Shown here in pieces: positions 1-519 of a stretch of DNA of 519 bases; the first letter of the stretch is position 1, and every line of letters begins with the position of its first letter. The notes beneath the pieces were generated by a model. The model worked only from the letters and a program-made list of their open reading frames with translations, had not been told where the DNA came from and did not search any database. The position numbers and the translations under genes were made by a program. Source of the DNA: a phage; the sequence record L26375.1. One strand, given 5' to 3'.

Positions 1-85
1 GACAGTGAGTCACCACATTGAAAGATGATGCGGTCTAACGAAACCTGACCTAAGACGCTCTTTAACAATCTGGTAAATAGCTCTT

Positions 86-155
86 GAGTGCATGACTAGC
101 GGATAATTCAAGGATATCGTAAGGTGCCCTTTATGATATTCACTAATAACTGCAC
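86..155 (+). promoter_or_regulatory. Probable RNase III processing site (T7 R0.3 equivalent) in the leader; approximate boundaries
   Basis: By established T7 biology, the 0.3 mRNA 5' end is generated by RNase III cleavage about 35 nt upstream of the start codon, which maps here to about 130..136. In the sequence, a 9-position stem with a GUAA tetraloop spans 110..131, with pairs C118-G123, U117-G124, A116-U125, U115-G126, G113-C128, G112-C129, A111-U130, A110-U131 and one A114.C127 mismatch. A possible lower stem pairs GUGCA 88..92 with UGCAC 151..155. The lower-stem assignment and the boundaries are tentative. Confidence 0.5.
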
Positions 156-160
156 GAGGT
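156..160 (+). promoter_or_regulatory. Shine-Dalgarno ribosome-binding site for ocr
   Basis: GAGGT at 156..160 is complementary to the 16S rRNA 3' end. An 8-nt spacer (AACACAAG, 161..168) separates it from the ATG at 169..171, which is near-optimal geometry. Confidence 0.85.
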
Positions 161-168
161 AACACAAG

Positions 169-519
169 ATGGCTATGTTTAACATGACTTACAACAACGT
201 TTTCGACCACGCTTACGAAATGCTGAAAGAAAATATCCGTTATGATGACATCCGTGACACTGATGACCTGCACGATGCTATTCACATGACTGTCGATAAT
301 GCAGTTCCGCACTACTACGCTGACATCTTTAGCGTAATGGCAAGTGAGGGCATTGACCTTGAGTTCGAAGACTCTGGTCTGATGCCTAACACCAAGGACG
401 TAATCCGCATCCTGCAAGCGCGTATCTATGAGCAATTAACGATTGACCTCTGGGAAGACGCAGAAGACTTGCTCAATGAATACTTGGAGGAAGTCGAGGA
501 GTACGAGGAGGATGAAGAG
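169..519 (+). CDS. ocr: Ocr (gene 0.3 protein), DNA-mimic anti-restriction protein inhibiting type I restriction-modification; 117 sense codons, 3'-partial only in that the stop codon lies beyond the window
   Basis: The frame is open from ATG 169 to the last base of the window. My translation is [117 protein letters not shown]. This matches the T7 Ocr sequence as I recall it at all but four positions, including the acidic C-terminal tail [11 protein letters not shown]. It has a strong SD at the correct spacing and codon usage typical of well-expressed E. coli/T7 genes (CTG, CGT, GAC, AAC, ATC). Recalled T7 Ocr is 117 aa, so the stop should be the next codon after 519. Confidence 0.95.

Follow-up and report, generated by a model that had tools for sequence, protein, structure and literature searches.

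Phage T7 defends itself with the product of its gene 0.3, the protein Ocr, a homodimeric mimic of bent DNA whose mature monomer is 116 residues long and has 34 acidic side chains (PMC3439906). Ocr occupies the DNA groove of type I restriction-modification (R-M) enzymes and so blocks them (PMC3439906), and its surface carboxylates imitate the phosphate backbone of the bent DNA. It also inhibits BREX (PMC7261183), and complexes of Ocr with the BREX methyltransferase PglX/BrxX have been described (PMC11341690, PMC11842806). The protein triggers the PARIS abortive infection system, from which T7 escapes by the substitution F54V or by ocr null alleles (PMC9122126). Heat-adapted laboratory lines of T7 average about 10 substitutions per genome (PMC8923235). 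Mutagenesis of T7 with nitrosoguanidine or hydroxylamine yields predominantly G:C>A:T changes, at about 4–8 mutations per genome per cycle (PMC6042481).

Natural homologues of ocr are found in other Teseptimavirus phages, and seven of these (NC-A, JeanTinguely, N30, EG1, phiA1122, 3A_8767 and Yanou) were used here for comparison with a stretch of phage DNA of 519 nt, referred to below in its full length as the window. Like the window, the seven relatives encode a PF08684 protein as the first early gene and carry a leader hairpin, but they differ from T7 by 8–16% at the DNA level, by changes that are mostly synonymous and of mixed type, whereas the window differs from T7 by 1.9%, in one mutational direction only and mostly non-synonymously. 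Taken as a whole, the window can with good confidence be read as the ocr region of T7 from a mutagen-loaded line, in which DNA mimicry by Ocr would be retained.

Identity of the Window and Its Gene

A megablast search against phage records aligned the whole window, ungapped, to nt 757–1275 of the T7 genome (V01146) at 98.1% identity; 509 of the 519 bases are the same and there are no indels. None of the 184 matching phage records gave a closer match. On the plus strand, the frame from 169 to 519 begins with ATG and continues through 117 sense codons to the final base of the window without a stop, coinciding with the annotated T7 gene 0.3 (nt 925–1278). The product of this ORF matches the Pfam family PF08684 ('DNA mimic ocr') across the entire profile (positions 1–101 of 101) with a score of 206.7 bits (E = 7e-62; the cut-off is 25 bits), and PHROG 2568 ('ocr-like anti-restriction') with E = 1.9e-55. 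It also aligns from residue 1 to 117 with residues 1–117 of PDB 1S7Z chain A ('Gene 0.3 protein / Protein Ocr'; E = 1.7e-70), with 113 of the 117 residues identical; the Ocr sequence of 1S7Z is found in ten PDB entries. Together with the T7 alignment, these matches place the ocr (gene 0.3) CDS, codons 1–117, at 169..519 (+), with its stop codon just outside the window. In T7, a TAA at nt 1276–1278 directly follows codon 117 and overlaps the ATG of gene 0.4, and the T7 isolate P (AY264777) has the same arrangement (gagTAAtg) at the end of its gene 0.3; the window ends at the final sense codon.

The encoded protein contains 33 Asp + Glu and 6 Lys + Arg residues, a net charge of −27, while the reference monomer of T7 Ocr has 34 acidic and 6 basic residues (PMC3439906) and a net charge of −28. 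Residue F54, which is relevant to the dimer and to PARIS (PMC9122126), is intact, and is conserved in 130 of 132 homologues. A Shine‒Dalgarno sequence, GAGGT, can be read at 156..160 (+), with a spacing of 8 nt to the start codon at 169, and is invariant across all 11 aligned sequences. Since the window is colinear with T7 757–1275, the gene is the first of the early region, preceded by the promoters for the host polymerase and by the leader hairpin. With T7 ocr and its product (CAA24384.1 / NP_041954.1; 1S7Z) it thus has in common the locus, the number of codons, nearly all residues including F54, the leader, the Shine‒Dalgarno sequence and the acidic C-terminal tail. In the seven natural relatives, 170 of the 219 changed codons in this frame (78%) are synonymous and the changes are concentrated at third positions, showing that the plus-strand frame 169–519 is the one under selection.

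That the gene is T7 ocr is virtually certain, and the window represents the left-end early region of T7 with T7's own ocr rather than the homologue of another phage. The locus is already known, and there is no new system in the window. The initial annotation, which had called the plus-strand ORF near-identical to T7 gp0.3 (Ocr) and a known protein rather than a novel system, is upheld on both counts. The two comparisons it had proposed, with T7 gene 0.3 and with an Ocr-family HMM, both returned strong matches. It was also right to place the gene among the earliest of T7, where gene 0.3 follows immediately after the early promoters A1–A3, and to warn that the list of ORFs hid the real gene. That list holds three ORFs, all on the minus strand, and the true ORF is missing from it because the frame runs off the end of the window.

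Related Records and the Gene 0.3–0.7 Deletion

A recurrent laboratory deletion of about 1.4–1.5 kb, which extends from the C-terminus of gene 0.3 to gene 0.7, forms at the sequence GAGGAAGTCG (PMC8923235). The left copy of this 10-bp deletion homology is found at 487..496 (+) of the window (position 1,253 in Table 2 of PMC8923235). The window reads through GAGGAAGTCG as wild type, and therefore comes from a lineage without the recurrent 0.3–0.7 deletion. Several T7 records match the window only as far as 500–502.

Many Ocr homologues are labelled 'protein kinase' or 'receptor binding protein kinase' in their source records, which looks like an annotation error derived from the neighbouring gene 0.7 or from 0.3–0.7 deletion fusions. 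The Ocr homologue of phiA1122 (NC_004777, nt 906–1328) is 140 aa long and shows PF27024 beside PF08684. The DNA match of phiA1122 to the window breaks off at 492, as though its C-terminus were a different or a fused one. A record deposited as 'Enterococcus phage EFA-2' (MT350293.1) contains an ocr region of the T7 type that shares 91% identity with the window, and for a Teseptimavirus-type sequence the assignment to an Enterococcus host looks doubtful. Another laboratory allele of ocr occurs in the T7 laboratory record GU071091, which differs from the reference by a single C>A transversion at window position 360 (GACCTT>GACATT) that specifies Leu64Ile.

The Ten Differences from T7

Base-by-base comparison with T7 gave five substitutions in the leader, between 18 and 120 (+), and five in the gene, between 179 and 388 (+). 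Those in the leader are C18T, G25A, C107T, G114A and C120T, and those in the coding sequence are C179T (S4F), C234T (N22, synonymous), G289A (A41T), C293T (A42V) and G388A (D74N), with residue numbers counted from Met1. All ten are G:C>A:T transitions. This class makes up 29% of the differences from T7 in the seven relatives, and under such a natural spectrum a result of ten out of ten has a probability of P ~4e-6. Read on the plus strand, the changes divide into six C>T and four G>A, without strand bias (P = 0.54). Eight of the ten are found in none of the seven natural relatives; the remaining two, the loop change at 120 and Phe4, both recur in Cedecea phage Yanou. That the set of differences is non-random, all of one class and with four amino-acid changes, went unremarked in the initial annotation, as did the nature of the upstream 168 bases as the T7 early leader with a conserved hairpin.

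Four of the five changed codons are non-synonymous. This proportion does not fit the 22% seen in the natural relatives (P = 0.01) but agrees with the 61% expected if G:C>A:T changes fell at random in the gene, where 101 of the 166 possible changes of this class are non-synonymous or nonsense (P = 0.35). No stop codon or frameshift has been introduced by the ten changes, while four G:C>A:T nonsense sites are available in the gene. Leader and coding sequence were not hit at significantly different rates (P = 0.29). A purine on the 5′ side, the context of nitrosoguanidine, is present at seven of the ten sites; given the 45% expected from background, this falls short of significance (P = 0.10), and the specific mutagen can therefore not be named from the window.

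Scored with an HMM of 132 natural homologues, the window protein falls 6 bits below T7 Ocr, at about 1.5 bits for each substitution. Residue 42 is Ala or Cys in 130 of the 132 homologues and residue 74 is Asp or Glu in 130, while residue 41 is Ala in 110 and residue 4 is Ser in 97. Each of Phe4, Thr41, Val42 and Asn74 is present in at least one natural homologue. The exact variant protein is absent from a collection of 15 billion proteins, and no viral (IMG/VR), GTDB genome or JGI metagenome contig contains the 31-mer that covers both A41T and A42V. Megablast searches of plasmids and E. coli genomes found nothing nearer to the window than wild-type T7.

The Leader and Its Hairpin

Positions 1..168 (+) correspond to T7 757–924 in the ungapped alignment with V01146 and represent the untranslated 5′ part (leader) of the early, class I transcript of T7. 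The start of promoter A3 is annotated at T7 750, so that the window begins 7 nt downstream of it, and a promoter/terminator scan returned no sigma-70-like promoter or terminator-like sites within the window. A conserved hairpin occupies 97..145 (+; T7 853–901), as indicated by the predicted fold and by conservation of pairing across 11 sequences. It consists of a lower stem (97–105/137–145), an internal loop, a 9-bp upper stem (110–118/123–131) and a GNRA tetraloop (119–122).

We take this hairpin to be the putative RNase III site R0.3. Its structure is supported by 99.5% pairing relative to slid controls, by the fold z-score and by our reading of the literature. Standard pairs occupy 197 of the 198 pair cells in the 11 sequences, compared with 33–52% when the partners are slid, and for the 89-nt segment of T7 the folding energy is −25.2 kcal/mol (z = −2.7). 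Natural variation in the stems is confined to G.U<->G-C and U.G<->U-A changes, which are one-sided, and no double compensatory changes were seen across the 11 sequences. The order A3–R0.3–gene 0.3 has been given for T3-type genomes (PMC3276506), and RNase III sites are not among the annotated features of the T7 records examined. At a permissive threshold, Rfam returned only two chance snoRNA matches (E ~3) and no curated family over the T7 leader hairpin. Cleavage in T7 is presumably at about nt 890 (Dunn & Studier 1983), equivalent to position 134 of the window. Dunn and Studier are also said to have reported that translation of gene 0.3 depends on RNase III processing.

The lone non-pair among the 198 cells belongs to the window, where G114A creates an A.C mismatch opposite C127, while C120T converts the loop from GCAA to GUAA. 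Among the relatives the tetraloop takes only the forms GCAA (T7), GUAA (Yanou, as in the window) and GAAA (EG1), so that the GNRA type is kept. Together, C107T, G114A and C120T are predicted to cost the canonical fold 7 kcal/mol (core −17.0 to −10.0 kcal/mol), and the predicted minimum in the window is a re-registered 13-bp hairpin (112–124/129–141; −13.3 kcal/mol). These modelled changes in the leader might alter RNase III processing and Ocr expression, the effect on expression being speculative. The locus thus differs from that of T7 in its weakened hairpin, with five leader transitions and a synonymous one, as well as in the four substitutions of Ocr and the resulting loss of one negative charge.

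Origin of the Mutations

The mutation pattern makes it likely that the window comes from a chemically mutagenised laboratory lineage of T7. In such a history all ten G:C>A:T transitions, in leader and gene alike, would have accumulated without purifying selection in a laboratory T7 line grown under a chemical mutagen, perhaps nitrosoguanidine or hydroxylamine, on hosts in which ocr is dispensable. With four non-synonymous changes to one synonymous, and a conserved hairpin pair broken, there is indeed no sign of purifying selection. The backbone is that of T7, to which 509 of the 519 bases are identical, while phages other than T7 reach at most 92% among the matches listed.

Described isolates of T7 show a similar pattern. 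Over these 519 nt, isolates P and P82 (AY264777 and AY264778) depart from T7 at seven positions; six of the changes are G:C>A:T, and three of the four in coding sequence are non-synonymous. Both isolates reportedly come from the nitrosoguanidine work of the Bull laboratory (Bull et al. 2003, J Mol Evol, 'Experimental evolution yields hundreds of mutations in a functional viral genome'). The spectrum of the window is also the one that the same group describes for nitrosoguanidine or hydroxylamine mutagenesis of T7 (PMC6042481). Extrapolated genome-wide, the density in the window would correspond to ~770 changes and that in P/P82 to ~540, both in the hundreds. P and P82 therefore resemble the window in their T7 backbone, in a comparable density of changes (seven versus ten), in the near-exclusive G:C>A:T class and in coding changes that are mostly non-synonymous. 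They differ from it in the sites that are mutated and in having one A>C transversion. As no mutated site is common to the window and P/P82, the window represents an independent lineage. Its identification as isolate P itself was rejected, the seven mutations of P being at other sites, and so was an origin from a heat-adapted T7 line (PMC8923235), in which ~10 substitutions are spread over a genome compared with ten in 519 nt here.

Transitions of this kind could also be made enzymatically, by a deaminase tethered to T7 RNA polymerase, by another engineered hypermutation system or by a host deaminase acting on ssDNA. Cytosine deamination yields exactly C>T and G>A, and the region is transcribed, with the T7 promoter phiOL upstream at nt 405 of the T7 genome. 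However, transcription of T7 is all rightward, so that an excess of C>T on one strand would be expected where a ratio of 6:4 is seen, and at least four G>A among ten changes has P = 0.013 if 10% are expected. Deaminase contexts are not enriched either (TC at two and WRC at five of the ten sites, counted by eye), and chemically mutagenised T7 isolates already display such a pattern and density. An enzymatic origin is accordingly considered improbable.

Less probable again is ordinary evolutionary divergence from T7 in the ocr region of a natural T7-like phage. S4F and the C120T loop change do occur together in Cedecea phage Yanou, and all four of the new residues have natural precedents, but a uniform set of G:C>A:T changes is hardly compatible with the natural spectrum (P ~4e-6), nor is the proportion of non-synonymous codon changes (four of five against 22% in the relatives; P = 0.01). 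In addition, the nearest non-T7 phages are only 91–92% identical among the matches listed, while the window is T7 at its other 509 sites, and one of the changes disrupts a hairpin pair that is otherwise invariant.

A non-biological source is about as unlikely as natural divergence, be it damage by deamination, a bisulfite-like conversion, or errors in the consensus of a T7 assembly with poor coverage. Damage-induced errors are likewise C>T and G>A, and the variant is absent from all collections searched; against this, coverage would have to be extremely low for ten errors within 519 bases to reach the consensus, the reading frame has acquired neither a stop codon nor a frameshift, and the density is near that of real, sequenced mutagenised isolates (seven per 519 nt).

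There is even less reason to favour either a natural footprint of a cytosine-deaminating host defence, comparable to that of APOBEC on retroviruses, or an Ocr allele selected for altered recognition by a sensor such as PARIS. The known PARIS-escaper alleles of ocr (F54V and null; Rousset et al. 2022, PMC9122126) are, like that of the window, laboratory-derived point mutants of the T7 gene. Unlike it, they include frameshifts and the nonsense mutations 247C>T and 265C>T, both at sites in ocr accessible to G:C>A:T change; the window has none of these and keeps F54, and nothing indicates selection for PARIS escape.

The possibility that the 141-aa antisense ORF at 10..435 (−), with a TTG start, is a real gene can be dismissed. 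The frame stays open in T7, P82, NC-A, N30 and EG1 as it does in the window, but it has no Pfam or PHROG matches, JeanTinguely and phiA1122 break it with in-frame stops (ungapped alignments), and the third-position and synonymous excess sits in the opposite, plus frame. Nor do the annotations for the first 2 kb of T7 place a leftward promoter to the right of this ORF; the sole leftward promoter there, A0 at 224, is outside the window and points away. It is spurious, and long merely from lying opposite coding sequence.

Expected Activity of the Variant Ocr

The initial annotation described Ocr as acting against type I R-M enzymes by acidic DNA mimicry, as an inhibitor of BREX and as a protein sensed by PARIS, in agreement with published work (PMC3439906 for the first; PMC7261183 and the structures in PMC11341690 and PMC11842806 for the second; PMC9122126 for the third). 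Many single and double mutants of Ocr show no observable effect, and loss of activity was reported only when a C-terminal deletion destabilised the protein, when the dimer interface was disrupted or when charge was removed extensively (PMC3439906). Residue D74 of the window protein corresponds to D73 in the numbering of the mature protein, which is the one central acidic residue near the target-recognition domains of EcoKI (PMC3439906). The substitution D73C worsened a five-fold charge mutant of Ocr and matters only on that background (PMC3439906). A42V places a larger, branched residue at a site that is otherwise Ala or Cys. Judging from the sequence, we expect the variant Ocr to be folded, dimeric and a largely active DNA mimic, perhaps slightly weakened by D74N and A42V.

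Implications

The value of the window for discovery is small, as the locus belongs to T7 itself and few anti-defence proteins are as well characterised as Ocr; the only addition made here is a likely mutagenesis scar on a unique and probably unselected ocr allele. Two lessons for annotation follow from it. ORF lists that omit frames running off the end of a window can hide the real gene and show a spurious antisense one, and the spectrum of differences in 'near-identical' matches is worth inspecting, as it points in this case most likely to an artificial, mutagen-loaded line. For the same reason, the sequence is unsuitable as evidence on natural variation or conservation of Ocr. D74N removes a charge that contacts the target-recognition domains of EcoKI, and A41T and A42V are two changes within a tightly packed helix. 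Combined with the damaged leader hairpin, these substitutions make the allele a small natural experiment on the robustness of Ocr.
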